Virus record (IMG/VR): IMGVR_UViG_3300037467_000752
DNA: 64,000 nucleotides
Origin: a virus
Taxonomy: Duplodnaviria; Heunggongvirae; Uroviricota; Caudoviricetes
Direction: 5' to 3' (one strand)
The notes below the pieces were generated by a model. The model worked only from the letters and a program-made list of their open reading frames with translations. It was not told the DNA's origin and did not search any database. Shown piece by piece: positions 1 through 61,628 of this stretch; the stretch's first letter is position 1; each line of letters opens with the position of its first letter. The translations under genes and the position numbers were made by a program.

Positions 1-245
1 TTGAGCGGCAGGCAATTGCAGAGGACTTGTGTATCCCGCACTGCACCATCCTGAAGCAAGACATGCTGCGCGACATCATCGGCTACAAGGAAGGTGATGA
101 CGTGGTGAAGAAGTGTCTGGAGTACGCAGAAGGCCCCGGCGATAACCCCGGCGTCATGCGTGAGGGCGTGGTGTTCAAAGCCATGAATCGAGACTTCAGC
201 TTCAAATGCATTAGTAACACCTACCTGTTGAACAAGAAGGACTGA
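1..245 (+). CDS. C-terminal fragment of an ATP-dependent RNA/DNA ligase-like protein; the 5' end lies outside the window
   Basis: Open frame from position 3 with no upstream start in the window. Contains an EGVVFK motif matching nucleotidyltransferase motif IV (EGxVxK) and a C-terminal FKxISNxYLL segment resembling RNA ligase C-termini. Confidence 0.3.
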   Translation, partial: ERQAIAEDLCIPHCTILKQDMLRDIIGYKEGDDVVKKCLEYAEGPGDNPGVMREGVVFKAMNRDFSFKCISNTYLLNKKD

Positions 246-802
246 TGCGAGCAAACGTAACCCCGTTGGCAGAGTTGCAAGCTGCCTTCGTGTACGATGA
301 AACCAGCAAAAGTTGCATTCGTTTGCGCGTGGCGAAATACAGGGGCAGATATCGCAACGTGCTTGTGGGAGCAGCGGGGGATGAAGTCGGCTGTTTGCAC
401 AAGGCCAGTGGCTACTACGTGACCCGTCACAAAGGGATGCAGTTGCAGTGTCATCGCATTGCGTATTGTCTTGCCAATGCTTGCGAGCTTGACGCTGACG
501 AAGAAGTGGATCATGCGGATGGTAATAGGGCCAACAACAGGGCCGGAAACCTCTGCAAAGTCACGGCTACAGGAAACGCCAAGAACAAAGCTCGTTATAA
601 AAACAACAGTTCTGGCGTCACAGGTGTGCGAAGGTTTGTAACCAAAACTGGTTTCGAATACTACGTAGCTAGAGTAGGAAACGACCCACCCCGCTACTTC
701 TCCATCTTGGTGTTAGGTGAGCAGGGGGCATTTAATGCTGCCGTGCGTTGGCGTGAAAGTGAAGCCGAGGCTGCGGCGTACACAGAAAGGCACGGAACAT
801 GA
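245..802 (+). CDS. HNH homing endonuclease with an AP2 DNA-binding domain
   Basis: HNH motif CHRIAYCLANACELDADEEVDHADGNRANNRAGNL, then an AP2-like segment SGVTGVRR...YYVARV. The ATGA start overlaps the upstream stop. Confidence 0.7.
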   Translation: MRANVTPLAELQAAFVYDETSKSCIRLRVAKYRGRYRNVLVGAAGDEVGCLHKASGYYVTRHKGMQLQCHRIAYCLANACELDADEEVDHADGNRANNRAGNLCKVTATGNAKNKARYKNNSSGVTGVRRFVTKTGFEYYVARVGNDPPRYFSILVLGEQGAFNAAVRWRESEAEAAAYTERHGT

Positions 803-3515: not shown

Positions 3516-5324
3516 ATGAGCAATTGGTGGGAAAAGCACGGCATCGACCTGACGAGAGAACACAAGACAGCCTGCCCCCGCTGCAGGCGCAAGGGTGGCG
3601 ACACAGCGGGTAACAATCTGCACTGCTATGGTATTGATAGCAACGGCAAAGACCTCGGGGCATTCTGCTGGGCGTGCGAGTTGAAAATTCCCAACGCAGA
3701 GTTGCGGGCAAAGCTCGATGGAGTCGAGGAAGATGAGGCTGAAAAGGAGTTTGAAAGGCTTATGAGTACAAGAGAAAAAATCACCCCAGAAGAAAACGAA
3801 AAGATCAAGAGCTACACAGGCATCGACTGCAAGGGCTGGCGCGGCATCCGCAAGGAAACGAATGCCTTCTTCGGCATCCGCTACAGCTACGACGAAGAGA
3901 CGGGCAAACCGGATTGCATGTACGTCCCGACGACAATTGATGGTGAACTAGCAGGCTATCGTCGCCGCATCTTCCCGAAGGACTTCAGCAGCCCCGTAGG
4001 TCAGGTGGGCAAAGAATGCGACATGATCGGCGAGTTTCGCTTCAAGAGTCACCGCAACGTCTGCCTGATCGTCGGCGGCGAAACGAAGATGGCACTGGCC
4101 TATCAAATGATGCGCGACGACCAAATTGCCAAGGGCAAGGACGAAATGTTCGACTCTGTGGCAGTGGTGTGTTCCACGCTGGGGGAGCCCGGAGCACACA
4201 AGCAGGCGCAACTGCGCTACAGCTTCTTCGAACAATTCAAGAAGATTGTTGTGTGCATGGATAGCGACGAAGCAGGTAGGGAAGCAGCCCAAAAGCTGGC
4301 GGCTGTGCTGCCCAAAGGTCGCGTCCACATTATGACGATGCGGTACAAGGACGCCGACATCTACGTGGAGAAGAACAAGGAAAACGAATTCATTCGCGAC
4401 TTCTGGAATGCCAAACCCTACACCCCTGACGGCATCATTGCCTCCAGCGGACTCATGGAGAAGGTGAAGGAGGCTGCACGGACGAAGCGTATCCCCCTGC
4501 CCCCGTTCATGCACAAGGCTGAAGCCATGATGGCAGGCGGCATTCCTTTGGGTGTCATCGTGAACCTTGCTTCCGCATCGGGCACAGGCAAATCCACCAT
4601 CGTTGACGAGTGCACGTACTTCTGGATTTTCGAGAGTCCTCACCGCATTGGCGTGGTGTCTCTGGAGTCTGATGCAGGTCAGTACGGCACGAAAGTGTTG
4701 AGCCGACATGTAGGCGTCAAGATCGACCTGATTGCGAGCGACGAAGAACGCATTGCATTCCTTGAGCGTCCTGACATCGTAGAGAAGGCGGACGTACTGT
4801 GGAACAACGCAGACGGAACCCCGCGCTGGCACGTTGTGGACGAGCGTGACGGTGGTGTGGAGAGCTTGAAGAAACAGGTGGAGGAACTAATCATCGCCTG
4901 TGAGTGCAAGGTGATTCTGCTGGACCCCATCCAAGACATCTTCGAAGGCATGTCTACGGACGAACAAAGCGCGTTTATGAAGTGGCAGAAGGGGATGGTC
5001 AAATCCCACAAAATCAGTTTCATCAACGTCAATCACGTTCGGAAATCTTCACAAGGGCAGAAGGCCAATTCCACTGGAGCAGACATCCACGAGGAAGACA
5101 TGCACGGTACAGGCTCCATCCTGAAGTCTGGTGCTTGCAACATGCTGTTCACGCGGGACAAGGAAGCAGAAGACCCTATCGAGCGGAACACCACGCGCAT
5201 GAAGATGACGAAGTGCCGTTGGACTGGCAACACAGGGCCTGCGGGAGAGTTCTACTACGAAAACGAAACGCACAAAATGTTTGACAAGGAAGACTGGATG
5301 CGTCAGAATCCGTCTACGTTCTAA
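3516..5324 (+). CDS. Bifunctional DNA primase-helicase (T7 gp4-like)
   Basis: N-terminal zinc ribbon CPRCRRKGG...CWACE. TOPRIM region, then Walker A LASASGTGKST and a DnaB/RecA-like helicase core. Confidence 0.85.
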   Translation: MSNWWEKHGIDLTREHKTACPRCRRKGGDTAGNNLHCYGIDSNGKDLGAFCWACELKIPNAELRAKLDGVEEDEAEKEFERLMSTREKITPEENEKIKSYTGIDCKGWRGIRKETNAFFGIRYSYDEETGKPDCMYVPTTIDGELAGYRRRIFPKDFSSPVGQVGKECDMIGEFRFKSHRNVCLIVGGETKMALAYQMMRDDQIAKGKDEMFDSVAVVCSTLGEPGAHKQAQLRYSFFEQFKKIVVCMDSDEAGREAAQKLAAVLPKGRVHIMTMRYKDADIYVEKNKENEFIRDFWNAKPYTPDGIIASSGLMEKVKEAARTKRIPLPPFMHKAEAMMAGGIPLGVIVNLASASGTGKSTIVDECTYFWIFESPHRIGVVSLESDAGQYGTKVLSRHVGVKIDLIASDEERIAFLERPDIVEKADVLWNNADGTPRWHVVDERDGGVESLKKQVEELIIACECKVILLDPIQDIFEGMSTDEQSAFMKWQKGMVKSHKISFINVNHVRKSSQGQKANSTGADIHEEDMHGTGSILKSGACNMLFTRDKEAEDPIERNTTRMKMTKCRWTGNTGPAGEFYYENETHKMFDKEDWMRQNPSTF

Positions 5325-5820: not shown

Positions 5821-6336
5821 ATGGCTGTGGAAGAAGTGGAGAAAATGGCTGGAATCCAGTCTAAGCCGCCTACTCAACTTGGCGTTGGCATCAATCCGAA
5901 GCAAGGCGCAGGCTCTGTGCAGCTTCCCATGTCGCTCGTTACTCCGTTGCTTCGTGCCAACATCGCTCTGGCGAAGTACAACGGCAAAGAAAAGTACGGC
6001 CTTGCCAACTTCATCGGCACGGAAGTGCTGATGTCCACATATCTCGATGCCATCTACCGCCACCTTGACAAGCTGTGTATGGGTGAGGAAGTGGACGAAT
6101 TGGATGGTGTGCCTCATATCGGCGCTATTGGCGCTGGGCTGGACATCATCTGTGCTGCCCGCGCTGCAGGAACGCTGGTGGATGACCGTGGACGTTGCGA
6201 CGGGCAACTGGAAGCCTACAAGGCTCTCACGCCGCTCGTGAAGCAACTGAAGGAACTTCACGCTGGCAAGAACCCTTATCACTACTACATGGTGAACAAG
6301 GAGAAAGACTTGCAAACAAAGAAGCAAGTGTGCTAG
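5821..6336 (+). CDS. Hypothetical protein
   Basis: RBS gaaggaaa present. No confident domain. Confidence 0.45.
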   Translation: MAVEEVEKMAGIQSKPPTQLGVGINPKQGAGSVQLPMSLVTPLLRANIALAKYNGKEKYGLANFIGTEVLMSTYLDAIYRHLDKLCMGEEVDELDGVPHIGAIGAGLDIICAARAAGTLVDDRGRCDGQLEAYKALTPLVKQLKELHAGKNPYHYYMVNKEKDLQTKKQVC

Positions 6337-7275: not shown

Positions 7276-7304
7276 TTGCAAGGAGTGTGGCTTCGTGCTA
7301 CACT
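7276..7304 (+). promoter_or_regulatory. Candidate promoter: TTGCAA, 17-nt spacer, TACACT
   Basis: Hexamers with a 17-nt spacer located 22 nt upstream of the HNH gene RBS. Confidence 0.35.
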
Positions 7305-7326
7305 CCTTTTTCATTTTGGAGGAAGC

Positions 7327-7869
7327 ATGGAAGAAGTGTGGAAGGATGTTGTTGGGTGGGAAGGTAGCTACGAAATCTCCAGCTTTGGAAGGCTCCGCTC
7401 CAAACCATTCCTGAAACGCGGCTGCGGACGTTCCGGGCCGTTCACATTCTGGACAAAGGAGCGCATACTAAAACCGTCCTTGAACGCAGACGGCTATGTA
7501 ATTTTCAGACTTCAGCGCGACGGTGTGAGGGAGAGTGAGGGAATACACAGACTGGTTGCCATTGCATTTTTGCCCAACCCGGACAACCTGCCAGAAGTCA
7601 ATCACAAGGACTCGGTAAGAAGCAACAATCATGCGGACAATCTGGAGTGGGTGACTAGCCAACAAAATGCGCGTCATGCATTCGACAGCGGTAATCGCAG
7701 TAACGCCAGAGAGCGTCATCCGAGGGCTGTGTTGAATGAGGACTTGGTGCGCAACATTCGTACCATGTATGCCGAGGGTGCGCGAGTTGTGGACATAGCT
7801 AGGGCGTTAGGGCTACAATACTGGACAGTAAGCCGGGTTGTACATAACAGAAATTGGAAGGAAAGATAA
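7327..7869 (+). CDS. HNH homing endonuclease (NUMOD4 plus HNH_3 type)
   Basis: NUMOD4-like segment WKDVVGWEGSYEISSFGRLRS. HNH motif NHKDSVRSNNHADNLEWVTSQQN. Its stop overlaps the polymerase ATG. Confidence 0.7.
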   Translation: MEEVWKDVVGWEGSYEISSFGRLRSKPFLKRGCGRSGPFTFWTKERILKPSLNADGYVIFRLQRDGVRESEGIHRLVAIAFLPNPDNLPEVNHKDSVRSNNHADNLEWVTSQQNARHAFDSGNRSNARERHPRAVLNEDLVRNIRTMYAEGARVVDIARALGLQYWTVSRVVHNRNWKER

Positions 7870-11582: not shown

Positions 11583-11888
11583 ATGAGAGGTTCCCATATA
11601 ACTATGAGCCACTTCGCCACACGGCGAGACTTCGAACAGGCGCAGGCCGATCACTCTGGCAAGAAGCTGGTGATGTATCATCCCCGTCCGGGTCTGGACT
11701 ACATCCAAGTGGGGCTGCGAGCTTCCGTGGTGCCTCTTGACCATCCGGACACTGTGTTCGTGACGAATGGGTACGAAGCCATCACGAGCGCCGTGCAATG
11801 GTACAACGAAGAAACGGGCGTGTTCGAAACGCTGAACAGCCGCTACGTTCCTAGCACTCTGGTGCAAGGGACGTTGGACCTTGGCTGA
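11583..11888 (+). CDS. Hypothetical protein
   Basis: RBS aaaggaaa. No domain assigned. Confidence 0.4.
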   Translation: MRGSHITMSHFATRRDFEQAQADHSGKKLVMYHPRPGLDYIQVGLRASVVPLDHPDTVFVTNGYEAITSAVQWYNEETGVFETLNSRYVPSTLVQGTLDLG

Positions 11889-12390
11889 CAGCGTACCCGC
11901 GTGGTTTGAACAGCTAGCAACTGACCGGCTGCGCTACGATGCAACATCCGGGCAGATACTGTTCAAGGTTGATTGCGGGAGGGCTAAGGCTGGAATAGTG
12001 GCAGACAAGCGGATGCCTAATGGATACCTGACGGTCAGGATTCAAAAAGATGGGGTCCGCGTTACAGTCTGTTCACACCGTATGGCTTGGTTCCTAGTTA
12101 CCGGAGCATGGCCCGCTGAAGAACTCGACCATATCAACAAGGTCCGGCACGACAACCGTATGGAGAATTTGCGCGAGTGCAACAGAAGTCTGAATGTAGT
12201 TCGGACTTTGCGCGAAGCAAGGACTCTCCCGCGAGGGGTTACGTGGGCAGGACACACGAACAAGACCAATCCGTATCTTGCTCAAATCGGCAACACGTAT
12301 ATCGGCTACTTCGGTACGCCAGAGGCTGCACATGCAGCGTATCTTGCTGCTTTTGAAAATAGGTATGGCTCTGAATGGAAGGAGTTTTGA
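11881..12390 (+). CDS. HNH homing endonuclease with an AP2 domain
   Basis: HNH_3 motif LDHINKVRHDNRMENLREC. AP2-like C-terminal segment RGVTW...YIGYFGTPEAAHAAY. Confidence 0.7.
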   Translation: MADSVPAWFEQLATDRLRYDATSGQILFKVDCGRAKAGIVADKRMPNGYLTVRIQKDGVRVTVCSHRMAWFLVTGAWPAEELDHINKVRHDNRMENLRECNRSLNVVRTLREARTLPRGVTWAGHTNKTNPYLAQIGNTYIGYFGTPEAAHAAYLAAFENRYGSEWKEF

Positions 12391-14062: not shown

Positions 14063-15070
14063 ATGAAGCGATTAGTATTCGATTTTGACTACCTTAAATA
14101 CAGCATAGCTTCCGTATGTGAAACCCGTAGCATCATTGCTACGCACATCGCCAGCGGCAAACAGAGGGAATTCCCCACGCGGACAGCCTTCTACGGCCAC
14201 TACAAGAAGAAGGATGGGGGTTGGCTTAGGCAGCTTAACGACGAACGAGCTAAGGATGGAAAGAAGCCGTTCAAGGCCGAAGACTTCGACATCGCTGACA
14301 AGCAAGTGGCGCAACCTGTGTCGCACATGAACCAGATCGTGAAGCAGCACATTCACGGTATCTGCAATGCGCTGGGCACGTCAAGCTACTACGGCTACAT
14401 CGGCAAGGGCCAGTCGTGGCGAGTGAAGGCCAGCACGATCAAAGAGTACAAGGGCGACAGAAAAGAAACGCTCAAGCCTCTAATGCTGGATGAAATCGAG
14501 GACTATTTGAAACGAATGCACAAGGCCACGGAAGTGCGAGGGCTGGAGGCAGACGATCAAGTTGTCATTGATTGCACGGCAAATCAGAATCTTGTCCTTG
14601 TAGGCGTGGACAAGGATTACTACGGCTGCGACGGCATCACTCTGTACAACCCCGACAAGATGGATAGGCCGCAACGCATCGAAGGACTGGGCAAGCTGTG
14701 GGCTGACGGCAAGGGCAACGTGCGTGGAGAAGGCCGCAAGTTCTTCTACTTCCAAATCCTCTCTGGCGACGACTCCGACTGCTATTGGGCCAACTCGGCC
14801 TCCGACATTAAGTGGGCTGACAAGAGCGCGTTCAAGGTGCTGGACGAGTGCAAGACGGACAAGGAATGCTGGAACGCCATCCTTGATACCTACAAGATGC
14901 TCTACCCGGAGCCGAAGGAAATCACGGGCTGGCGTGGGGACAAGTTTACGGTGGATGCAAAGTATGTGCTGAAAGAAAACTGCACCATGGCACACATGTT
15001 GCGCAAGCCCGATGACAAGTTCGACCTTGACAAAGTGCTGGAGGAACACGGCCTTGCCCACAAACTCTAA
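14063..15070 (+). CDS. 5'-3' exonuclease or flap endonuclease (PIN-like 53EXO)
   Basis: N-terminal LVFDFDYLKY segment resembles the start of Pol I-type 5' nucleases. Acidic metal-site motif GLEADDQVVIDC. Start 14048 versus 14063 is uncertain. Confidence 0.55.
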   Translation: MKRLVFDFDYLKYSIASVCETRSIIATHIASGKQREFPTRTAFYGHYKKKDGGWLRQLNDERAKDGKKPFKAEDFDIADKQVAQPVSHMNQIVKQHIHGICNALGTSSYYGYIGKGQSWRVKASTIKEYKGDRKETLKPLMLDEIEDYLKRMHKATEVRGLEADDQVVIDCTANQNLVLVGVDKDYYGCDGITLYNPDKMDRPQRIEGLGKLWADGKGNVRGEGRKFFYFQILSGDDSDCYWANSASDIKWADKSAFKVLDECKTDKECWNAILDTYKMLYPEPKEITGWRGDKFTVDAKYVLKENCTMAHMLRKPDDKFDLDKVLEEHGLAHKL

Positions 15071-15644
15071 GCCGAAACCCAAGCCGTGGCTCATTGAAGG
15101 CAATCCGTGGAAGACGGAAGCCAAGTTTCTTGCGTGGGTGCGTGGAGTGCTGCGTAAGGGCTGGAGTCGTCACCCTATCAAGGTAATGTTCCTGAACGCT
15201 ACGCGAAAGCGTATCCCGAACCCAAGCCCGAAGAACGCTGTCCGCTTTCCTGAAGTGTGGGGGTGTCGGTGTGCAGAGTGTGGGGACATGTTTCCGCAGA
15301 AGGACATTGAGGTTGACCACATCGATGCAGCCGGGGGCTTCAAAGACCTTAGCCAGTTGGGTGAATGGGCAGAACGGCTCTACCTAGTGGACTTCGACAG
15401 CATCCGTGCAGTGTGCAAGCCCTGTCACAAAATCAAGAGCTACGCGGAACGCATGAACATTACGTTCGAAGAAGCCAGGGGAGTTAAGAAGGCTATCGAG
15501 TACATGAAGCAAGCTAGCAGCGCAAAACAGCTTGAGTTGCTTGCCAGATTCGCGTACAATGGAGCTTCAGTAAGCACGGTTGCAAAGCGACGTGTTTTGT
15601 TTGAAACCATCTTTAAGGAGAATCACAATGCAGACTGTGCCTGA
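15012..15644 (+). CDS. HNH-superfamily zinc-binding nuclease-like protein
   Basis: Motif CRCAECG...VDHIDA...CKPCHKIKS fits the CxxC...DH...CxxCH pattern. Overlaps the upstream gene by 59 nt, so the start is uncertain. Confidence 0.4.
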   Translation: MTSSTLTKCWRNTALPTNSKPKPKPWLIEGNPWKTEAKFLAWVRGVLRKGWSRHPIKVMFLNATRKRIPNPSPKNAVRFPEVWGCRCAECGDMFPQKDIEVDHIDAAGGFKDLSQLGEWAERLYLVDFDSIRAVCKPCHKIKSYAERMNITFEEARGVKKAIEYMKQASSAKQLELLARFAYNGASVSTVAKRRVLFETIFKENHNADCA

Positions 15645-17290: not shown

Positions 17291-17574
17291 TCGCCGCACA
17301 ACTGATGTTCGCCAACTTGCCGCTGTATGTCATGGCTATCTCAGAGGGTAAAGAAGTTGCCATCGTGAGGGCTGGTTCATTTCACCCGTTTTGGGATGAC
17401 GGTGAGCCGCCTGCGTTGTTTGACCAAAGGGGCTTTTTCATAGGTGGCCTAGAAGATGGGCGGAGTTATGAGTACGACAAGACATACAAGCTGGACGAGT
17501 GCCCTGCACTTGAGCAGTGGCTCCGACGCCAACATTTTTCGTTGGTGAACATGAGCGAAGTAGTAAAGGTTTAA
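17287..17574 (+). CDS. Hypothetical protein
   Basis: GTGA overlap start. No domain assigned. Confidence 0.4.
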   Translation: MIAAQLMFANLPLYVMAISEGKEVAIVRAGSFHPFWDDGEPPALFDQRGFFIGGLEDGRSYEYDKTYKLDECPALEQWLRRQHFSLVNMSEVVKV

Positions 17575-17588
17575 AGAAAGGAAAGACG

Positions 17589-18095
17589 ATGAGTAAAATT
17601 TGCATGGAATCGCTGTGGGCTTCTTACGAGAACATCCGCACGATGAACACCATCACTGGAAATCTTTCCGCCAGTGCTGGAATCGAGAAGGGCTTTGACA
17701 ACAAGCTGGATAGCCAACTTAGCTTTGTGTTTGAAGAACTGACGGAAGGCATCGATGCGTTGGAGCAAGGGGATGCACACAACTTCGGCAAGGAAGTAGT
17801 AGACATTTGGGTGACGGTGTGCGGCTTGATGCAGATCGCAGAGGCTGCGGGCTATGACATTGAAGAAAACATGCGCTACGTGGACTCCAACAACCTCGCT
17901 AAGTTTCCTTCGGAAATGCCGCGTGAAGTGCCGGAAGATTGCCACCGTGTTGTGCACAACGAAGAATTCAACCGCTTCGCTATCCTGCGCCGGGATGGGA
18001 AGTTCCTGAAGCCGAGGGGTTGGAAGAAGATTGACCCGAAGACGCTGAAGGCACCTGAAGGTATTTTTGCAAATCGTGAAGGAGCGCAGGCATGA
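17589..18095 (+). CDS. MazG-like nucleoside triphosphate pyrophosphohydrolase
   Basis: Segment ELTEGIDALEQGDAHNFGKEVVDIWVTVCGLMQIAEAAGYDIE matches the MazG EExxE/D helical motif. RBS aaagaaaggaaag. Confidence 0.5.
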   Translation: MSKICMESLWASYENIRTMNTITGNLSASAGIEKGFDNKLDSQLSFVFEELTEGIDALEQGDAHNFGKEVVDIWVTVCGLMQIAEAAGYDIEENMRYVDSNNLAKFPSEMPREVPEDCHRVVHNEEFNRFAILRRDGKFLKPRGWKKIDPKTLKAPEGIFANREGAQA

Positions 18096-18799: not shown

Positions 18800-21613
18800 A
18801 TGGACATTTCCCAACAAGTCTTCAGTGACATCATCATTTACAACAAGTACGCCAAATACATTCCCGCCCTCAAGCGCCGCGAAACGTGGGAGGAAATCTG
18901 TGATCGCAATGCAGCGATGCACCTGAAGAAGTTCCCGCAGCTTGAGGACAGCATCCGAGCCGTGTATACGGATTACGTCAAGACTAAGAAGGTGCTCCCG
19001 TCCATGCGATCCATGCAATTCGGCGGGCGTCCCATTGAACTCAACCACACAAGAATCTACAACTGCTGCCTACTCCCCGTGGACAATGTAGTGGCCTTTG
19101 GTGAAACCATGTTCCTGCTGCTGGGAGGCACAGGCGTAGGCTACAGCGTGCAGAAGCATCATATTGAAAAGCTGCCCGTCATCCAAGGACCGAAGACCAC
19201 ACGCAGGCGCTACCTTGTCTCCGATTCGATTGAAGGCTGGGGCGACGCGGTGAAGATGCTCCTGAAGGCGTACGCAGAGGGCAGGGCCAACCCTGATTTT
19301 GATTTTCGCGATATCCGTCCGAAGGGTGCCACGCTGGTAACTGCTGGCGGCAAGGCTCCCGGCCCGGAACCCCTGCGCATCTGTCTGGAAAATCTCCGCA
19401 CGGTGTTGAATGGGGCTGTCGGTCGCAAGCTGACGACGCTGGAGTGCCATGATATGCAGTGTCACATTGCCGATGCTGTCCTTTCTGGAGGTATCCGCCG
19501 TGCAGCCATGATCGCGTTCTTCAGCCATGACGACCTTGACATGGTGACTTGCAAGAGCGGTGCATGGTGGGAACTGAACCCCCAGCGCGGGCGTGCGAAC
19601 AACTCCGCTGTGTTGCACAGGGATGAAATCGATCAAGACGCATTTCAACGTCTGTGGCAGAGAGTTGAAGAGTCTAACGCGGGGGAGCCGGGCGTCTATT
19701 GGACTAACGATAAGGAGATTCTGAGCAACCCGTGCTTTAGGGGCGATATGGAACTGCTTACCTCCGAAGGCTACAAACGAATCGATAGCCTCGTGGGTAA
19801 GGAATTCCTCAACGTCAATAAGGACGGCAACCTCACCGCTGGCAAGGTGTGGTCCACTGGCGTAAAGCCTGTTGTGGAAGTCCGCTTTCGTCACAGCAGG
19901 GCCGGAAGGAAGCCTAGCCTGTACGTCACACCCAATCACACATTCATGCTGAATGACGGAACGGAGTGCGAGGCTAAAGACTTGGCAGGTAAGCGGCTTA
20001 TGCCTTACTTTACCGGCAAGGCTATTCCTCGCGTTCAAGAAGATTTCAAAGCTGGCTTCATGCTCGGCGATGCGTGCCTGACGGACGCTGCAAATCCTGA
20101 CAAGGCTGGAATTGTGGTGTGCATTGGCGAGAATGACGTAGAAGTAGCGGACATTTTTGGGGTCACCCTGTCAGACAACCATCGGCATTACCTCCAATCT
20201 GCCAGATCGCTTGTGGACAAGTATGGCTTGCCCGTTACACAGACGTTTGATAGGCAGCTTGGTGATAACCGCAGTGACGACTTCCTCATGGGTCTGTACT
20301 CTGCAAACGGGTGTGTGATTGCATCTGGTAAACGTGTTGCTCTCAAGACGACATCTAAGTTGCTTGCACAGCAAGTAGTTGAGTGGCTGCAGGCCAAAGG
20401 AATGACGCCGTATGTGACGACAAATAAGGCGAAGCGGATTCAATGGCCTAACGGAGAATACGAAAGCCGGGAGAGCTATGACGTTAACCTCGCTGGGCTT
20501 GAGAACCTGATTCGGTTTGCGGAAGTCGTTTCGTTTGTGCATGGCTACAAGCGTGAAGCACTGGCACAAGCAATTCGCGAAAGCTCTCCTACTGTTTCGG
20601 CTGTTCTGTCGGCGGGGGAAGCTGAAGTGTTTGACTTCACTGAGCCTGAAACTCATTGGGGCATCGTCAATGGCGTTGTTGCGCACAACTGTGTCGAGGC
20701 TACGTTGCGAATGTTCTCGTTCTGCAACCTTACTACGGTTAACGCATCGGATGTCGAGACGCAAGATGAGTTGAACAAACGAGTAGCCGCTGCTACCCTC
20801 ATCGGCACTCTGCAAGCATCCTATACAGACTTCCACTATCTGCGGGATGAATGGAAGAAGGTTACGGAAGAAGACGCCCTTATCGGTGTGTCCATGACGG
20901 GCATCGGCTCTGGCAGGGTGTTGAAACTGGACTTGACGGAAGCCGCACGCATTGTGGTGACAGTGAACAAGGATGTGGCATCGCTAGTCGGCATTAATAC
21001 GGCTGCTCGGACCTCGCTTCTCAAGCCTGAAGGCACTGCCTCTATCGTGGTGGGCTCTTCATCTGGCATCCATGCATGGCACGCTCCGTTCTACCGTCGC
21101 CGTATGCGCCTTGGAAAGAACGAGCCGCTGTACGCCTACGTGAAGGCCAACTTCCCGGAGCTTGTGGAGGATTGCCACTTCAAACCGCACCTTGAAGCCG
21201 TGCTGACGATTCCGCAGAAAGCTCCCGAGGGCTCCATCTTGCGCGATGAGTCGTTCTTGGATTTGCTGGAGCGTGTTCGCAGGTTCAATCAGGAGTGGAT
21301 TGCTCCGGGCCATAATCGCGGCGTGCAGAAGCACAACGTATCTTGCACCATCAGCCTGAAGCCTGACGAGTGGGAAGCCTGCGGTGAGTGGATGTGGAAG
21401 CATCGCAACGAGTACAACGGCATCAGCGTGTTGCCTTATGACGGTGGGACGTACATCCAAGCGCCGTTCGAAGACTGCACGGAAGAAGAGTACAATGCGA
21501 TGATGTCGCTGCTTCATAGCATCGATCTTACGCAGGTGATTGAAACCGACGACGCTACGGGCTTTACGCAGGAAGCGGCCTGTGCTGGCGGCCAATGCGA
21601 GGTTATCCTGTAA
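18800..21613 (+). CDS. Ribonucleotide reductase large subunit interrupted by an intein
   Basis: RNR active-site context EPGVYWTND...SNPC, resuming as VEATL; the spliced product reads SNPCVEATL. C-terminal CAGGQC redox pair. No beta-subunit gene lies adjacent, so a class II single-chain enzyme is suggested. Confidence 0.75.
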   Translation: MDISQQVFSDIIIYNKYAKYIPALKRRETWEEICDRNAAMHLKKFPQLEDSIRAVYTDYVKTKKVLPSMRSMQFGGRPIELNHTRIYNCCLLPVDNVVAFGETMFLLLGGTGVGYSVQKHHIEKLPVIQGPKTTRRRYLVSDSIEGWGDAVKMLLKAYAEGRANPDFDFRDIRPKGATLVTAGGKAPGPEPLRICLENLRTVLNGAVGRKLTTLECHDMQCHIADAVLSGGIRRAAMIAFFSHDDLDMVTCKSGAWWELNPQRGRANNSAVLHRDEIDQDAFQRLWQRVEESNAGEPGVYWTNDKEILSNPCFRGDMELLTSEGYKRIDSLVGKEFLNVNKDGNLTAGKVWSTGVKPVVEVRFRHSRAGRKPSLYVTPNHTFMLNDGTECEAKDLAGKRLMPYFTGKAIPRVQEDFKAGFMLGDACLTDAANPDKAGIVVCIGENDVEVADIFGVTLSDNHRHYLQSARSLVDKYGLPVTQTFDRQLGDNRSDDFLMGLYSANGCVIASGKRVALKTTSKLLAQQVVEWLQAKGMTPYVTTNKAKRIQWPNGEYESRESYDVNLAGLENLIRFAEVVSFVHGYKREALAQAIRESSPTVSAVLSAGEAEVFDFTEPETHWGIVNGVVAHNCVEATLRMFSFCNLTTVNASDVETQDELNKRVAAATLIGTLQASYTDFHYLRDEWKKVTEEDALIGVSMTGIGSGRVLKLDLTEAARIVVTVNKDVASLVGINTAARTSLLKPEGTASIVVGSSSGIHAWHAPFYRRRMRLGKNEPLYAYVKANFPELVEDCHFKPHLEAVLTIPQKAPEGSILRDESFLDLLERVRRFNQEWIAPGHNRGVQKHNVSCTISLKPDEWEACGEWMWKHRNEYNGISVLPYDGGTYIQAPFEDCTEEEYNAMMSLLHSIDLTQVIETDDATGFTQEAACAGGQCEVIL
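19733..20689 (+). other. Intein (319 aa) with a LAGLIDADG homing endonuclease, inserted at the RNR active site
   Basis: Starts with the Cys of CFRGDMELLTSEGYK. Block B TPNHTFML. Ends VVAHN, followed by the +1 Cys. Two LAGLIDADG-like motifs (GFMLGDACL and FLMGLYSANG). Confidence 0.7.
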
Positions 21614-21867
21614 TGCTTACCGTCTATTCGACCCCGGCTTGTCCGGGCTGTACCGCAGTCAAAGCCCTGCTGCTTCGCTTCAACATTCCGTTTGAAGTGA
21701 AGATGGTAACGGAGGATGAGGGAGCGAAAGCTTTCTTCAAGGCCAAGGGCCATCGTTCCGTGCCACAGGTGTACGCTGGCGATGTCTACGTGGGCGACTT
21801 CGCTGCCGTATCCAAGACAGGGGCTGCAGACCTAATGGCTTTAGCAACGAAACAACAAAAGACTTGA
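21613..21867 (+). CDS. Glutaredoxin/thioredoxin-fold redox protein (NrdH/Grx-like)
   Basis: CPGC active site at the N-terminus of a roughly 85-aa thioredoxin fold. Immediately downstream of the RNR gene (TAATG overlap). Confidence 0.6.
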   Translation: MLTVYSTPACPGCTAVKALLLRFNIPFEVKMVTEDEGAKAFFKAKGHRSVPQVYAGDVYVGDFAAVSKTGAADLMALATKQQKT

Positions 21868-22913: not shown

Positions 22914-23239
22914 AAAATCTGCTTAGCAAGTACAGCCCCAGCGTTCACGCGGTGGCAGTGAAGCGGTTGATCGAACTGCGTGACGGTGCTACTGCCAGAA
23001 GCGCAACTGCTGGCATTTGCAAGGACATCGCGTTCGCCTTCATCGCCAATGGCATCCACCTTGGCGAAGAACCTGTGGACTCTGGCTACGACTACTGCCG
23101 AGACGTGTTCCGCGATATGGACCTGCCTGATGACCCGCTCGATTACGGTGTCCACCTTATGTGGGAAGGCGAAGCAGGGACAACTCGTCGTGCGTTTGCG
23201 GGCGAAATGGCTGCACATATTCAGGAGAACTACCTGTGA
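22910..23239 (+). CDS. Hypothetical protein
   Basis: RBS aaggagagaag. No domain assigned. Confidence 0.45.
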   Translation: MKNLLSKYSPSVHAVAVKRLIELRDGATARSATAGICKDIAFAFIANGIHLGEEPVDSGYDYCRDVFRDMDLPDDPLDYGVHLMWEGEAGTTRRAFAGEMAAHIQENYL

Positions 23240-24060
23240 TCGACCTGTACATCCACGGTCGCAAGGTGCCTGTCACGTGGAAGCGATTCCCCGGTGGCGA
23301 AACGCTCGTGCGTATCGAGACTCCGCAAGCTGGCGTGGACCTCGGCGCACGCATCGTCATGCGCTTCGAAGGCAACGATGACCTGTTCAATCTCGCCTTG
23401 CTCGTGGACGCCATCCGTCGCAATGTGAATGTGGGCCGAATCACGTTGGACATGCCCTACCTTCCCTACGCACGTCAGGATCGTGTGTGCAGCCCCGGCG
23501 AATCACTTAGCGTGAAAGTTGCGTGCGACTTCATCAACAGTCTTAAGTTCGATGCTGTGTTCGTGAAGGACATCCACTCTGAAGTTGGCGTTGCGTTACT
23601 GGATAATCTGCGGCACATGACCCAAGCGGATGCTGCCTTCTGGTTTACCGGAGCCCTGCGCCGCGATGAAACAGTGCTAGTGAGCCCGGATGCCGGGGCC
23701 AACAAGAAGGTGCTGACGTTCGCCAAGGAACACTCCTTCGATGACGTGGTGCGTGCAGACAAGCTGCGCGACACTCGCACGGGAGCAATCCTTGACACCA
23801 TCGTGTACAGCGAACATATCGGCAGCAGAAACTTCCTCATCTTGGACGACATCTGCGATGGCGGCAGAACGTTCGTGGAACTTGCGAAGAAGCTGCGACC
23901 TCTGACGGAAGGGAAGATTTTCCTGTACGTCACGCACGGCATCTTCTCGGCTGGCGTGGATGTTTTCAACGGCATCGTTGATCGCATCTACGTCACGAAC
24001 TACATGGGCAAGGCTGCAGACTCCCTGCATCCACTCATCATCAGCAACCACAACAAGTAA
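23236..24060 (+). CDS. prs: Ribose-phosphate pyrophosphokinase (PRPP synthetase)
   Basis: Motif ITLDMPYLPYARQDRV matches the diagnostic Prs motif. PRPP-binding loop ILDDICDGGRT. GTGA overlap start. Confidence 0.8.
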   Translation: MIDLYIHGRKVPVTWKRFPGGETLVRIETPQAGVDLGARIVMRFEGNDDLFNLALLVDAIRRNVNVGRITLDMPYLPYARQDRVCSPGESLSVKVACDFINSLKFDAVFVKDIHSEVGVALLDNLRHMTQADAAFWFTGALRRDETVLVSPDAGANKKVLTFAKEHSFDDVVRADKLRDTRTGAILDTIVYSEHIGSRNFLILDDICDGGRTFVELAKKLRPLTEGKIFLYVTHGIFSAGVDVFNGIVDRIYVTNYMGKAADSLHPLIISNHNK

Positions 24061-24075
24061 GAAAGGACAGAAACA

Positions 24076-25731
24076 ATGTTCAACATCTTCCCTCCCCACG
24101 CCTGTGACTTCTACAAGACCGGGCATATCTACCAATACGTGCCCGGCACGCAACAGGTGTACTCCAACTTCACGGCCCGAGCAGCAACGCACGCACGGAT
24201 GCCCAAGGAGTGGGACGGCAAAGTGGTGTTCTTCGGCCTGCAGGCAATGGTCAAGGGCTTCTTGATCGACCAGTGGAACCGCGAGTTCTTCGACAAGCCC
24301 AAGCACAAAGTCGTCGCACGCTACACCCGTCGCATGGACGCGGCGCTGGGTGCTGGCGTGGTGACTTCCGAACACATTGCAGCCCTGCACGATCTTGGCT
24401 TCCTGCCTGTCATCGTCAAGGCCCTGCCGGAAGGCTCCCGTGTGAACCTGAAGGTGCCGCTGTTCACGGTGACGAACCATCCCAACTACCCGGAGTTCTT
24501 CTGGCTGACGAACTATCTGGAGGATGCGTTCTCGGCTGAATGCTGGAAGCCTATCACTGTGGCTACCATCGCCTACGAGTTCCGCCGAATCCTACGCAAG
24601 TGGCAGGAAATCACGGGCTCTGCCCCGCAGTTCGTGGATTGGCAGCTTCACGACTTCTCCATGCGTGGACTCGATGGCCTGATGGCGGCTGGCCCCACGG
24701 GCGGTGCACACATGGCTGCAACGGGCTACGGCACGGACAACATCCTTGCCCTCGATTGGCTGGAGGAATACTACAACGCCGATGCGGAGTTCGAACTGCT
24801 TGGCGGGGGCGTTCCGGCTACGGAGCACAGCGTCATGTGCATGGGTGGCAAGGAAGATGAGAAGGAAACTTTCCGCCGCCTGATGGCTCGCTACCCCACT
24901 GGCATCTTGTCTATCGTGTCCGACACGTGGGACTTCTGGAAAGTCATCACGCAAACGGCGCTGGAACTGAAGGATGAAATCCTCGCACGACAACCCGATG
25001 CGCTGGGCAATGCCAAGCTGGTGTTCCGCCCCGATTCGGGCGACCCGGTGAAGATCATCACGGGCCTGACGTACAAGGAAATCCAAAGCCTTGACGACTA
25101 CGATGATGTCAATGGCGAGGAAGTGGTGAAGTACGAAGGCAAGTTCTACGAGTACGAAGTGGATTACCACTACAGCTATGACGACTCGTGGCCCACGGGT
25201 ATCACACTCGGCAAGGAAGTGCCTGAGCATGTCGTCAAGGGTGCTGTGGAGTGCCTGTGGGACATCTTCGGTGGTGACACCAATGAGAAGGGCTACAAGA
25301 CGCTGAATCAGCGTGTGGGCCTCATCTACGGTGACAGCATCACGTTGGACCGGGAGGAAGCCATCCTCAGCCGCCTTGCGGCCAAGGGCTTCAGCGCAGG
25401 CAACCTCGTGTTCGGCATCGGCAGCTTCACGTACCAATACGTGACGCGGGACACCTTCGGCATGGCAATGAAGGCAACGTTCGGCGTGGTGGAGGGTGAA
25501 GACCGCGAACTGTTCAAAGACCCAGCTACGGGTGACGGCATGAAGAAGTCTGCTAAGGGCTTGCTGCGTGTGGAGAAGGAGGGCGACAACTTCGTCCTCT
25601 ACGACCAGCAGACGCGAGAGCAAGAAGCGCAAGGCGCACTGGAAACCGTCTTCTACTGCGGCTCGCTGCACAGGGATGAGAAGTACGAAACCATTCGGTA
25701 TCGGCTTGGCATCACCACTATCAAGTTTTAA
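24076..25731 (+). CDS. nadV: Nicotinamide phosphoribosyltransferase (NAMPT, NadV-like)
   Basis: 551 aa with the NAMPT/PBEF family architecture. N-terminal DFYKTGH, GTDNIL, TEHSVM and C-terminal GSLHRD-type regions. RBS gaaaggacag. Confidence 0.8.
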   Translation: MFNIFPPHACDFYKTGHIYQYVPGTQQVYSNFTARAATHARMPKEWDGKVVFFGLQAMVKGFLIDQWNREFFDKPKHKVVARYTRRMDAALGAGVVTSEHIAALHDLGFLPVIVKALPEGSRVNLKVPLFTVTNHPNYPEFFWLTNYLEDAFSAECWKPITVATIAYEFRRILRKWQEITGSAPQFVDWQLHDFSMRGLDGLMAAGPTGGAHMAATGYGTDNILALDWLEEYYNADAEFELLGGGVPATEHSVMCMGGKEDEKETFRRLMARYPTGILSIVSDTWDFWKVITQTALELKDEILARQPDALGNAKLVFRPDSGDPVKIITGLTYKEIQSLDDYDDVNGEEVVKYEGKFYEYEVDYHYSYDDSWPTGITLGKEVPEHVVKGAVECLWDIFGGDTNEKGYKTLNQRVGLIYGDSITLDREEAILSRLAAKGFSAGNLVFGIGSFTYQYVTRDTFGMAMKATFGVVEGEDRELFKDPATGDGMKKSAKGLLRVEKEGDNFVLYDQQTREQEAQGALETVFYCGSLHRDEKYETIRYRLGITTIKF

Positions 25732-56822: not shown

Positions 56823-57569
56823 ATGCGCCATAAGGCACGGGACAACCGTAGGAAAGAACAAAGACAAGAACAAGAGCGGGCTATAAAAGACAAGTTTCAA
56901 GACATTCGCCGCGAACAGGTAGCCGCCCAAGCCATCACACCCCTAAACGACCGCCAAGCGGAGTACATGAATGCCATTCGCACCAAAGACCTTGTGATCG
57001 CCACGGGGTACGCGGGCACGTCAAAGACGTTCGTGGCAACCTGCATGGCCGCTGACGCCTTCCGGTTGAACGAGTGCAAGCGCATTGTGCTAGCCCGGCC
57101 CGCCGTATCAAATTCCCAAAGCCTCGGATTCTTTTCTGGTGATGCCAATGAGAAGATGACGAATTGGCTCATGCCCATGCTGTCGGTGCTTTACAAGCGC
57201 CTCGGCAAAGCTGTGGTGGACATCGCCATCATGGAAGGCAACATCGTTCTCCAACCCCTTGAAACGATCAAGGGCATGAGCTTCGGGAAAGATACGTGGG
57301 TTATCGCAGACGAAGTGCAGGACTGTGAAATCGAGGAAATCAAGAGCATTGCTACCCGCTCCGGTGGATGCAAGATGATCTTGTGCGGGGACATTCGCCA
57401 GTCAGCCCTTGCTGGTGACAGCGGACTGCGCATCTTCGCCGACATCGTTGCGAACAACCACCGTCTGCAGGAAAGTGTGGCACTTATTGATTTTGACGAG
57501 CACGAGCACATCGTGCGAAGTCGCCTGTGCCGTGAGTTGATTATAGCCTTCGATAAGTCAGGCTACTAA
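56823..57569 (+). CDS. PhoH-like ATPase
   Basis: Walker A-like GYAGTSKTF, Walker B VIADEVQ and GDIRQ motifs in the PhoH order. Confidence 0.6.
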   Translation: MRHKARDNRRKEQRQEQERAIKDKFQDIRREQVAAQAITPLNDRQAEYMNAIRTKDLVIATGYAGTSKTFVATCMAADAFRLNECKRIVLARPAVSNSQSLGFFSGDANEKMTNWLMPMLSVLYKRLGKAVVDIAIMEGNIVLQPLETIKGMSFGKDTWVIADEVQDCEIEEIKSIATRSGGCKMILCGDIRQSALAGDSGLRIFADIVANNHRLQESVALIDFDEHEHIVRSRLCRELIIAFDKSGY

Positions 57570-60916: not shown

Positions 60917-61092
60917 ATTGGTTTGTGATGTTGAACATGGCGAACGGCTGGATTACTCCGTTGGTGGACGACAATGGGGTGGCGATGTTCGAAACCTACC
61001 AAGAAGCTAAGAAAGCAGCCCATGATAACCTACTCGGGCGTGCTTACGGAGCTATTGTATTTAACACGTTAGATGATGGGCACGACGTATGA
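60913..61092 (+). CDS. Hypothetical small protein (59 aa)
   Basis: RBS gaaggagaaaag. ATGA overlaps. Confidence 0.35.
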   Translation: MNWFVMLNMANGWITPLVDDNGVAMFETYQEAKKAAHDNLLGRAYGAIVFNTLDDGHDV

Positions 61093-61628
61093 GCAACGAA
61101 AAATGGGATAAGCGGTTTCTGGACCTTGCTGTGCTAGTGGCATCGTGGTCCAAAGACCCTAGCACGCAAACCGGGGCTGTGATCGTCACTGCCGACCGTA
61201 AGGGTGTCTTCATCGGCTACAACGGCTTCCCGCGTCCGATGTTTGACATGGAGCACCTGTACGCAGACCGCGAGCAAAAGTACAGCCGCATCATCCACTG
61301 CGAAATGAACGCACTGCTGCAGGCTGGTCCTGCCGCTGAAGGAGCTACGCTGTACACGTGGCCGTTTGCTTCCTGTGATCGTTGTTTCGTACACATGGCA
61401 CAAGGCGGCATCAAACGCTTCGTCGCGCCGAGGCTGACGGGGGAGCGGGCCGAACGGTGGGAGCCCTCTCTGCGCAAGACGCGGATGTATTCCGTGGAAA
61501 TGGGCCTGCAACTGGATGAGATTGAGTATGAGCCTCAAGTCAAGGTGGACGTTGCTGGCGTGCAGGAAAACCAGAGGGCATGGGACAAGTACCAAGCCTC
61601 TCGCAACATCATCTTAGGTGGAAAGTGA
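61089..61628 (+). CDS. dCMP deaminase (cytidine/deoxycytidylate deaminase family)
   Basis: Zinc-binding motifs HCEMNAL and SCDRC. Confidence 0.7.
   Translation: MSNEKWDKRFLDLAVLVASWSKDPSTQTGAVIVTADRKGVFIGYNGFPRPMFDMEHLYADREQKYSRIIHCEMNALLQAGPAAEGATLYTWPFASCDRCFVHMAQGGIKRFVAPRLTGERAERWEPSLRKTRMYSVEMGLQLDEIEYEPQVKVDVAGVQENQRAWDKYQASRNIILGGK

Follow-up and report, generated by a model that had tools for sequence, protein, structure and literature searches.

A predicted LAGLIDADG intein at the radical cysteine of a phage class II ribonucleotide reductase and its free-standing relatives

The ribonucleotide reductase (RNR) gene on a 64,000-nucleotide (nt) stretch of DNA from a virus of the Caudoviricetes (IMG/VR record IMGVR_UViG_3300037467_000752; the whole stretch is called the window here) contains an insert of 957 nt, or 319 codons, that is exactly in frame at both junctions. 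The insert is a real and exact observation: its first codon is TGC at 19733 (CFRGDMELL...), its last is AAC at 20687..20689 (...GVVAHN), and direct reading of the DNA confirmed both the extent of the 319-amino acid (aa) segment and the CVEATL that follows it, as given in an original prediction made from the letters of the DNA without database searches. From its conserved residues, modelled fold and relatives, the insert is very probably a canonical class 1 intein with a double-motif LAGLIDADG homing endonuclease, predicted to splice and to home, in a phage monomeric B12-type RNR. Coordinates are collected in Table 1.

The reading frame is free of stops and frameshifts across all 937 codons. 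When the insert is removed in silico, SNPCVEATL is restored and a 618-aa RNR with the contiguous junction ...EILSNP-CVEATL... results, as had been foreseen; the computed masses are 104.6 kDa for the precursor, 69.4 kDa for the spliced RNR and 35.2 kDa for the intein. The N-extein is collinear with inteinless homologues starting at residue 1, and the C-extein begins with CVEATLRMFSFC, which includes the equivalent of Cys419 of the RTPR enzyme described below, and ends in ...CAGGQCEVIL. The G+C content of the insert (52.1%) shows a minor difference from that of both exteins (~55.5%). An identical 937-aa protein (P0001) is present on 8 contigs. The four places shown represent four different samples, of which one is from the JGI and the other three are Logan run assemblies, and an assembly artefact is thereby excluded. 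The longest contigs, of 85-87 kb, indicate an uncultured phage of ~85-90 kb. Judged from sequence, the appropriate annotation is an intein-containing class II RNR whose predicted mature product has 618 aa, rather than a 937-aa 'RNR alpha subunit'.

The exteins matched the Lactobacillus leichmannii reductase RTPR (PDB 1l1l) with an E value of 2e-27, the C-terminal part aligning with RTPR residues 520-737. Local alignment placed SNPCVE over T405-N406-P407-C408-G409-E410 and the downstream FSFC over C419, while the C-terminal CAGGQC aligned with the RTPR tail; the RTPR hallmarks of an NPCxE radical loop, a second active-site Cys 11 residues further on and a C-terminal Cys pair are all present. 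Following RTPR enzymology, we take C408 to be the thiyl-radical cysteine and C419 to be one of the redox pair. A match to TIGR02505 (E 1.4e-60), obtained with the intein-containing sequence as the query, scored 205.3 bits and fell below the equivalog cutoff of 340. By these alignments the host RNR is a member of a divergent phage clade of monomeric class II (RTPR/NrdJm-like) enzymes with a presumed dependence on B12. The original prediction had proposed a comparison with NrdJ/NrdA homologues; the host is of the NrdJm-like type and is not an NrdA. The predicted intein lies between Pro311 and Cys312 (mature numbering), directly before the catalytic radical cysteine, which would also be the +1 nucleophile; the insertion directly N-terminal to the Cys aligned with RTPR Cys408 agrees with the claim that the catalytic cysteine loop is the target. 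Since the NPCxE thiyl-radical loop is split, the 104.6-kDa precursor could not be catalytically active, and since the +1 nucleophile would be the radical Cys itself, RNR activity in this phage would be strictly conditional on splicing. This site is the most frequent one for contiguous RNR inteins (Dassa et al. 2009, PMC2677866), and Novikova et al. (PMC4760082) list RNR, with 211 inteins, in second place among bacterial intein hosts; the view of RNR active sites as an intein hotspot agrees with this literature. Introns and inteins in phage RNR genes have been reviewed by Dwivedi et al. (PMC3653736).

The in-silico spliced 618-aa RNR was used to search for homologues, and the best 120 listed were compared. 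All but five (115 of 120) were insert-free proteins of 616-647 aa, collinear with the spliced product at up to 81% identity and 97-100% coverage. Comparison with inteinless homologues had been named beforehand as the check that could expose a domain insertion instead of an intein, and its outcome speaks against a domain insertion and for an intein. The exact sequence LSNPCVEATLR was found in 53 of the 120, while others vary at this site (e.g. GTNPCVEIGLR and GTNPCCEISLK). The closest inteinless relative is P0002 (locus L004), with 81% protein identity and, for the locus, 76% DNA identity; L004 is syntenic with the window, with a 283-aa gene, a 96-aa gene, MazG, a 187-aa gene, RNR, a 102-aa gene, phosphoribosyl pyrophosphate (PRPP) synthetase and nicotinate phosphoribosyltransferase (NAPRTase). 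A near-identity DNA search of the RNR gene against 50,697 phage records gave no match, and the best cultured-phage extein matches (Oceanospirillum, Microcystis and Vibrio phages) were at ~60%.

Among the 120 close RNRs listed, an intein at the NP/C site (the slash marks the insertion point) was found only in P0001, P0036 and P0079, and this sporadic distribution fits a homing cycle. P0036, from a sister phage (locus L006 6322-8574) whose exteins are roughly 70% identical, has a 130-aa mini-intein at the same codon. Its ends are nearly the same as those of the window intein (CFRGDMKLLTSEGY...INGVVAHN), three Hint segments are 66%, 52% and 75% identical, and about residues 100-297 of the window intein are missing, which amounts to the whole endonuclease domain. 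The mini-intein of P0079 is unrelated to the window intein. The intein-bearing alleles are only 65-76% identical in DNA and are too diverged for a co-conversion signal near the site. A different LAGLIDADG intein of ~330 aa was seen in two close homologues of the window RNR, P0009 (949 aa) and P0120 (941 aa), 11 residues downstream and before the Cys419-equivalent (FSF/C...TYQ/CNLTT); it has Gln at its end, no penultimate His and a canonical DADG second motif.

Residue conservation within the insert was read from a 110-sequence family alignment, using intein numbering 1-319. In block A, Cys1 is conserved in 109 of 110 sequences, G4 in 97 and T10 in 106; in block B, T66 is invariant and H69 is found in 108; and in blocks F and G the counts are 110 for V299, 109 for D301, 110 for F302, 106 for H318 and 110 for N319. 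The individual features that had been listed for the insert, namely the N-terminal Cys, the TPNHTFML block B, the HN end, the +1 Cys and two LAGLIDADG-like motifs, are all present. The window intein keeps all 19 Hint columns that are conserved at 85% or more and 33 of 36 such endonuclease columns, the three departures being conservative (G114A, I253L and I266V), and therefore does not look decayed. An AlphaFold2 model of the intein had a mean pLDDT (predicted local distance difference test) of 82.6 and a pTM (predicted template modelling score) of 0.79, and Foldseek matched it to PI-SceI, TliVMA, DnaB, DnaE and RecA inteins with E values of 5e-14 to 1e-5, as expected of a Hint fold. The best of these were endonuclease-bearing inteins (TliVMA at 5e-14 and PI-SceI entries at about 5e-13 to 5e-9), followed by mini-inteins at 1e-7 (Ssp/Npu DnaB and Mtu RecA) and then by I-Tsp061I and I-DmoI at 1e-4. 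The family profile matched DnaB and DnaE inteins at 2e-8, and the C-terminal blocks F and G aligned with DnaB mini-intein C-termini. A PDB search with the single intein sequence was nearly empty; it took the family profile to reach PI-PfuI and the mini-inteins.

The endonuclease domain passed the PF14528 (LAGLIDADG_3) threshold with 35.6 bits against a cutoff of 22.5 (E 1e-8). Helices 102-113 and 182-192 of the model, with beta strands after each, fit the monomeric two-motif LAGLIDADG fold, and the family profile matched I-DmoI at E 8e-4. In the profile alignment with PI-PfuI (PDB 1dq3, E 1e-10), motif 1 of the family (GfiqGDg) lies over GFIAGDG and motif 2 (GlysANGsV) over GLFDAEGHV. Asp113 aligns with the GDG Asp of PI-PfuI and is Asp in 107 of the 110 family members. 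Its counterpart in motif 2, Asn192, aligns with the catalytic Glu of the PI-PfuI 'DAEG' and is Asn in 109 of 110, in a motif that reads G-x-Y-S-A-N-G; around it lie the invariant residues G187, A191 and G193, and further invariant endonuclease residues include D135 and D250. The sequence SANG is common to the free-standing relatives described below and to the Nodularia phage intein. Because Asn recurs in 109 of 110 members and is shared by both the Nodularia phage intein and the free-standing relatives, it is a family trait and not decay, and Asn192 is accordingly an ancestral, selected state rather than a recent knockout. The penultimate acidic residue of each LAGLIDADG motif has been described as a conserved metal ligand that is essential (PMC3384342), and a literature search for a natural LAGLIDADG centre with Asn found no paper on it. 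Since the Asp113/Asn192 pair is non-canonical, canonical two-strand catalysis cannot be assumed; the protein may nick one specific strand, cut both strands by means of an unusual metal site, or only bind DNA. The conservation of this centre across a large intein family poses a cheap biochemical question, whether a double-strand break or a nick is made.

An exhaustive phmmer search with the intein against 1.84 billion representatives gave a family of 861 representatives at E<=1e-3, of which 118 reach E<=1e-30. Junctions were analyzed in the best 150 listed matches (148 new representatives), of which 109 cover residues 1-319 end to end and lie within proteins of 360-1870 aa. Among these 109, 108 start with Cys, 105 end with His-Asn and 107 have Cys next, nearly all of them after Asn-Pro and before CxE. 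Family members are 28-48% identical to the window intein, and in all 17 loci examined the intein is at NP/C or one residue away, with the one-residue-shifted variant (NPC/...HN/SEI) in P0133, P0149 and L015. The family extends to the cellular genomes of Clostridia (two isolates included), Sphingomonadaceae, Neisseriaceae, candidate phyla radiation (CPR) bacteria and a Bathyarchaeia metagenome-assembled genome. Cultured Nodularia phages carry a family intein, and their GenBank annotation already reads 'intein-containing RnR'. These matches, like those to LAGLIDADG_3 and to solved endonuclease-bearing inteins, lie well outside what chance would produce. By these matches the identification of the window intein is correct and the element itself is ordinary, one more phage example at the best-known RNR intein hotspot; it changes little, and its relatives are the more useful leads. 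A 1366-aa metagenomic RNR (L039 3265-7365) has two family inteins in tandem at NP/C, a full-length intein followed directly by a mini-intein (GTNP/CHGGDM...LISHN/CFTGDM...VIAHN/CSEIPM).

The course of splicing was drawn up from the conserved residues and from established class 1 intein chemistry. Translation would give the 104.6-kDa precursor, inactive as a reductase. Cys1, aided by T66 and H69 of block B, would form a thioester by an N-S acyl shift, which Cys+1, the catalytic radical cysteine, would attack in a trans-thioesterification; Asn319 would then cyclise with the aid of His318 and of Asp301 in block F, and an S-N shift would create a native peptide bond, leaving the 69.4-kDa, 618-aa RNR and a free intein of 35.2 kDa. 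The endonuclease of the free intein may recognise the uninterrupted AAC CCG/TGT GTC GAG region (…GAGATTCTGAGCAACCCG/TGTGTCGAGGCTACGTTGCG… in the fused, insert-less site) in intein-less alleles of co-infecting relatives, where a double-strand break or a nick could lead to recombinational repair that copies the intein in. The strict adherence of the family to one site and the survival of its free-standing relatives lend indirect support to such cleavage of the insert-less allele.

Several observations count against a splicing and homing intein, among them the low confidence of the model over residues ~110-180, the first half of the endonuclease (pLDDT 52-66), and three other explanations have to be weighed with them. 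The metagenomic source could suggest that assembly had joined an RNR gene to unrelated intein-bearing reads, which we consider next to impossible, since the identical protein recurs on 8 contigs (four samples among the places shown), both junctions are perfectly in frame and a related mini-intein occupies the same codon in a sister phage. A permanent, never-spliced RNR domain, or an RNR pseudogene disabled by the insertion, could be read from the splicing-domain scores, which are below threshold both for PF14890 Intein_splicing (26.1 against a cutoff of 35.8 bits, E 8e-6) and for TIGR01445 (18.7 against 24.5 bits, E 3e-3). These cutoffs are annotation thresholds and not biological criteria, and therefore do not outweigh the evidence from residues and fold. 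Against splicing itself, Pro at -1 is reported, in work on the Mth RIR1 intein, to be unfavourable in heterologous hosts; a literature search for the Mth RIR1 proline effect and for details of PI-PfuII gave nothing usable. Set against a permanent domain or a pseudogene are the split of an NPCxE radical loop that 115 of the 120 best homologues have unbroken, the full set of splicing residues, a frame open over 937 codons, exteins conserved at 81% protein identity to P0002 and 76% DNA identity to L004, a glutaredoxin gene kept directly downstream of the RNR gene, and the annotation of the same family as intein-containing RNR in cultured Nodularia phages; we judge both versions very improbable.

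A late-stage, fixed intein that splices while its endonuclease is dead or only binds DNA, and that is inherited only vertically, would be the third explanation. Motif 1 ends in GDA rather than GDG, and an acidic residue is found at the catalytic position of motif 1 and Asn at that of motif 2, although the literature describes an acid in each motif as essential (PMC3384342). An empty-site allele of the window lineage (the fused junction CTGAGCAACCCGTGYGTCGAGGCTAC) was not found in viral_contigs or metagenome_contigs, a weak negative obtained with an exact-match pattern only; together with the identical 937-aa protein on 8 contigs, this would fit an allele that no longer moves. The mini-intein of P0036 further shows that endonuclease loss does occur in the lineage. 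However, Asn at this position in 109 of 110 members that are 28-48% identical, with invariant flanking residues, indicates purifying selection and not decay, and the endonuclease frame has no stops or frameshifts. In addition, free-standing relatives with the same Asp/Asn pair are kept at 77-79% identity to one of their number, P0124, beside different RNR genes. An inactive nuclease could hardly account for this, as no means other than nuclease activity is known by which a free-standing homing gene persists. On balance we regard a dead or merely DNA-binding endonuclease as unlikely, and a splicing intein with a functional endonuclease as the better description.

The closest relatives of the window endonuclease domain (residues 97-285) are four free-standing open reading frames (ORFs), P0123-P0126, of 247-266 aa and 52-56% identity, while other inteins reach at most 42% identity to this domain. 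All four begin inside the Hint N-lobe, with a degenerate TxxH, and stop just before block F. As they retain Hint N-lobe remnants and lack Cys1 and blocks F and G, P0123-P0126 derive from an intein, like HO. Each lies ~55 nt past the stop of an RNR catalytic-subunit gene, and the type of RNR differs among the contexts. A scan of viral_contigs found no further free-standing copies, and metagenome_contigs gave only the tandem-intein RNR of L039.

In three of these four contexts the adjacent RNR gene is interrupted after the first base of the thiyl-Cys codon (CCG T/insert/GT ...), so that the intron-like inserts lie within one nucleotide of the window intein insertion point. The inserts in L036, L037 and L038 are non-coding and, by boundary rules, appear to be group I introns: in all three, U is the last base of the 5' exon and G that of the insert. 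None was detected by Rfam at standard settings. Searches with short segments gave the scores in Table 1, the best of which (L038, 48.6 bits, covering the full-length RF00028 model) is near but below the gathering score of 50. The 5' half of the L036 insert is clearly homologous to the L038 insert, and by inspection the P7 pairing shows an apparent compensatory change between L036 and L037 (GACUG/CAGUC versus GACUA/UAGUC). In the fourth context (L001-L003) a class I RNR is uninterrupted and its loop reads SQLCSEI, without NP. The partnership of a free-standing endonuclease and a short intron that lacks an ORF and occupies its target is known as collaborative homing (Bonocora and Shub; Zeng et al., both as cited in PMC2814812). 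The four contexts, of which three have an apparent intron, suggest a collaborative-homing arrangement with an intein-derived endonuclease. It is tempting to go further and to propose one active lineage with an asymmetric Asp/Asn centre, possibly a nickase, that targets RNR thiyl-Cys codons and has moved between intein, intron-associated and free-standing vehicles; we hold this tentatively, as a serious possibility that falls somewhat short of being probable. If true, a single homing endonuclease lineage would be seen switching between intein-based and intron-associated life styles, with collaborative homing derived from an intein. The window intein is of interest as the closest in-frame relative of the free-standing, intein-derived endonuclease genes beside RNRs apparently interrupted by introns, in a promising system for endonuclease switching among inteins, introns and free-standing genes.

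Among known systems, the RnR intein of Nodularia phage vB_NspS-kac65v162 (MK605244) is at the same xNP/CxE point and is 33% identical end to end, and metagenomic and bacterial RNR inteins of the family are 34-48% identical to the window intein. What the Nodularia-type and RIR1-type RNR inteins have in common with the window intein are the four blocks (A, B, F and G) as well as the GFIQGDG and G-x-Y-S-A-N-G motifs. The window intein differs from RIR1-type inteins in having GDA in motif 1 and TPNH instead of TPDH in block B, and, unlike these relatives, has a monomeric RTPR-like class II host and an endonuclease whose nearest relatives are free-standing genes and not other inteins. PI-PfuI, the Pyrococcus furiosus RNR intein, is also an intein-borne double-motif LAGLIDADG enzyme in RNR and, among solved structures, comes closest in sequence to the endonuclease domain (residues 97-286 against 139-332), but it is 454 aa long, has an acidic pair (GDG Asp and DAEG Glu) where the window intein has Asp/Asn, and shows no detectable similarity in the splicing domain. 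PI-SceI (the yeast VMA1 intein) and TliVMA are the best structural matches to the two-domain architecture and have the same class 1 residue inventory, but occur in another host protein, are larger (~370-450 aa) and share no more than 12-17% identity. Both motifs of PI-SceI contain Asp (D218 and D326). The split NrdA and NrdJ inteins (Dassa et al. 2009), including the NrdJ-1 split intein, likewise interrupt phage-like RNRs in the thiyl-radical loop: those of NrdA share the insertion point, and those of NrdJ are one residue C-terminal to it (PMC2677866). Their endonuclease, of GIY-YIG or Vsr-like type, is encoded by a gene of its own between the two intein halves, whereas the window intein is contiguous with an in-frame LAGLIDADG domain. 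HO, a free-standing LAGLIDADG enzyme derived from VMA-type inteins (PMC3384342), is a parallel to P0123-P0126 and not to the window intein; collaborative homing of F-CphI and psbA is likewise a parallel to the P0123-P0126 contexts, although F-CphI belongs to a different, Endo VII-like family.

Table 1. Positions of the RNR gene, the parts of the predicted intein, its free-standing relatives, the intron-like inserts and other genes
Feature	Sequence	Position	Strand	Details or basis
RNR ORF including intein	window	18800..21613	+	937 aa; direct translation
N-extein	window	18800..19732	+	311 aa, C-terminal end ...TNDKEILSNP; RNR-II insertion domain and RTPR matches
Intein	window	19733..20689	+	319 aa, 35.2 kDa; predicted Hint splicing domain split by LAGLIDADG endonuclease domain
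Block A (CFRGDMELLTSEG)	window	19733..19771	+	Cys1, predicted N-S acyl shift nucleophile; family alignment
Block B (SLYVTPNHTFML)	window	19916..19951	+	TxxH = T66/H69; TPNHTFML at residues 66-73
LAGLIDADG homing-endonuclease domain	window	20021..20587	+	~residues 97-285; PF14528, family profile to PI-PfuI
LAGLIDADG motif 1 (DFKAGFMLGDACL)	window	20042..20080	+	residues 104-116; Asp113 (20069..20071), canonical metal-binding acid
LAGLIDADG motif 2 (DFLMGLYSANGCV)	window	20279..20317	+	residues 183-195; Asn192 (AAC, 20306..20308) at second catalytic-acid position
Blocks F and G (EAEVFDFTEPETHWG ... NGVVAHN)	window	20618..20689	+	Asp301, penultimate His318, terminal Asn319
C-extein	window	20690..21613	+	307 aa plus stop; starts with +1 Cys TGT 20690..20692 (CVEATL...)
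Glutaredoxin-family gene	window	21595..21867		PF00462 E 3e-14; overlaps RNR gene end
HNH_3 endonuclease gene	window	245..802
HNH_3 endonuclease gene	window	7276..7869		with NUMOD4, weak helix-turn-helix match
HNH_3 endonuclease gene	window	11881..12390
Weak HNH match	window	15012..15644
Nucleotide-metabolism gene set	window	23161..24060, 24076..25731, 5821..6336, 17517..18095, 61089..61628, 56823..57569
Free-standing endonuclease P0123	L038	1619-2419
Free-standing endonuclease P0124	L001 (loci L001-L003)	4418-5161
Free-standing endonuclease P0125	L036	4001-4789
Free-standing endonuclease P0126	L037	3957-4709
Intron-like insert	L038	about 78-340		exon 1 ...AAT CCG T, exon 2 GT GTT GAA; RF00028 48.6 bits, E 1.7e-11, full-length model
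Intron-like insert	L037	2084-2315		232 nt; exon 1 ...AAC CCG T, exon 2 GT GGT GAA; RF00028 16.2 bits, E 0.076
Intron-like insert	L036	2840-3060		221 nt; exon 1 ...AAT CCG T, exon 2 GT GCA GAA; RF00028 no match

Two ORFs on the opposite strand of the RNR gene (19070..20038 and 20171..20836) had no Pfam match and were treated as non-coding shadows. The window had also been described as carrying five free-standing HNH endonucleases and as rich in selfish nucleases; among the 20 ORFs scanned we found three HNH_3 genes and one weak HNH match, a fifth was not confirmed, and the description holds as far as these three or four HNH genes and no further. An HNH_3/AP2 gene lies at the corresponding place in the inteinless relative L004. 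The glutaredoxin encoded at the end of the window RNR gene is probably the reductant for the RNR; in L004 there is no glutaredoxin gene, with a gap of only 94 nt from RNR to the next gene. Other nucleotide-metabolism genes in the window are those for dATP/dGTP diphosphohydrolase, a MazG-like protein, dCMP deaminase and PhoH, identified with Pfam, and for PRPP synthetase and NAPRTase, assigned from the annotation of the corresponding genes in related loci.

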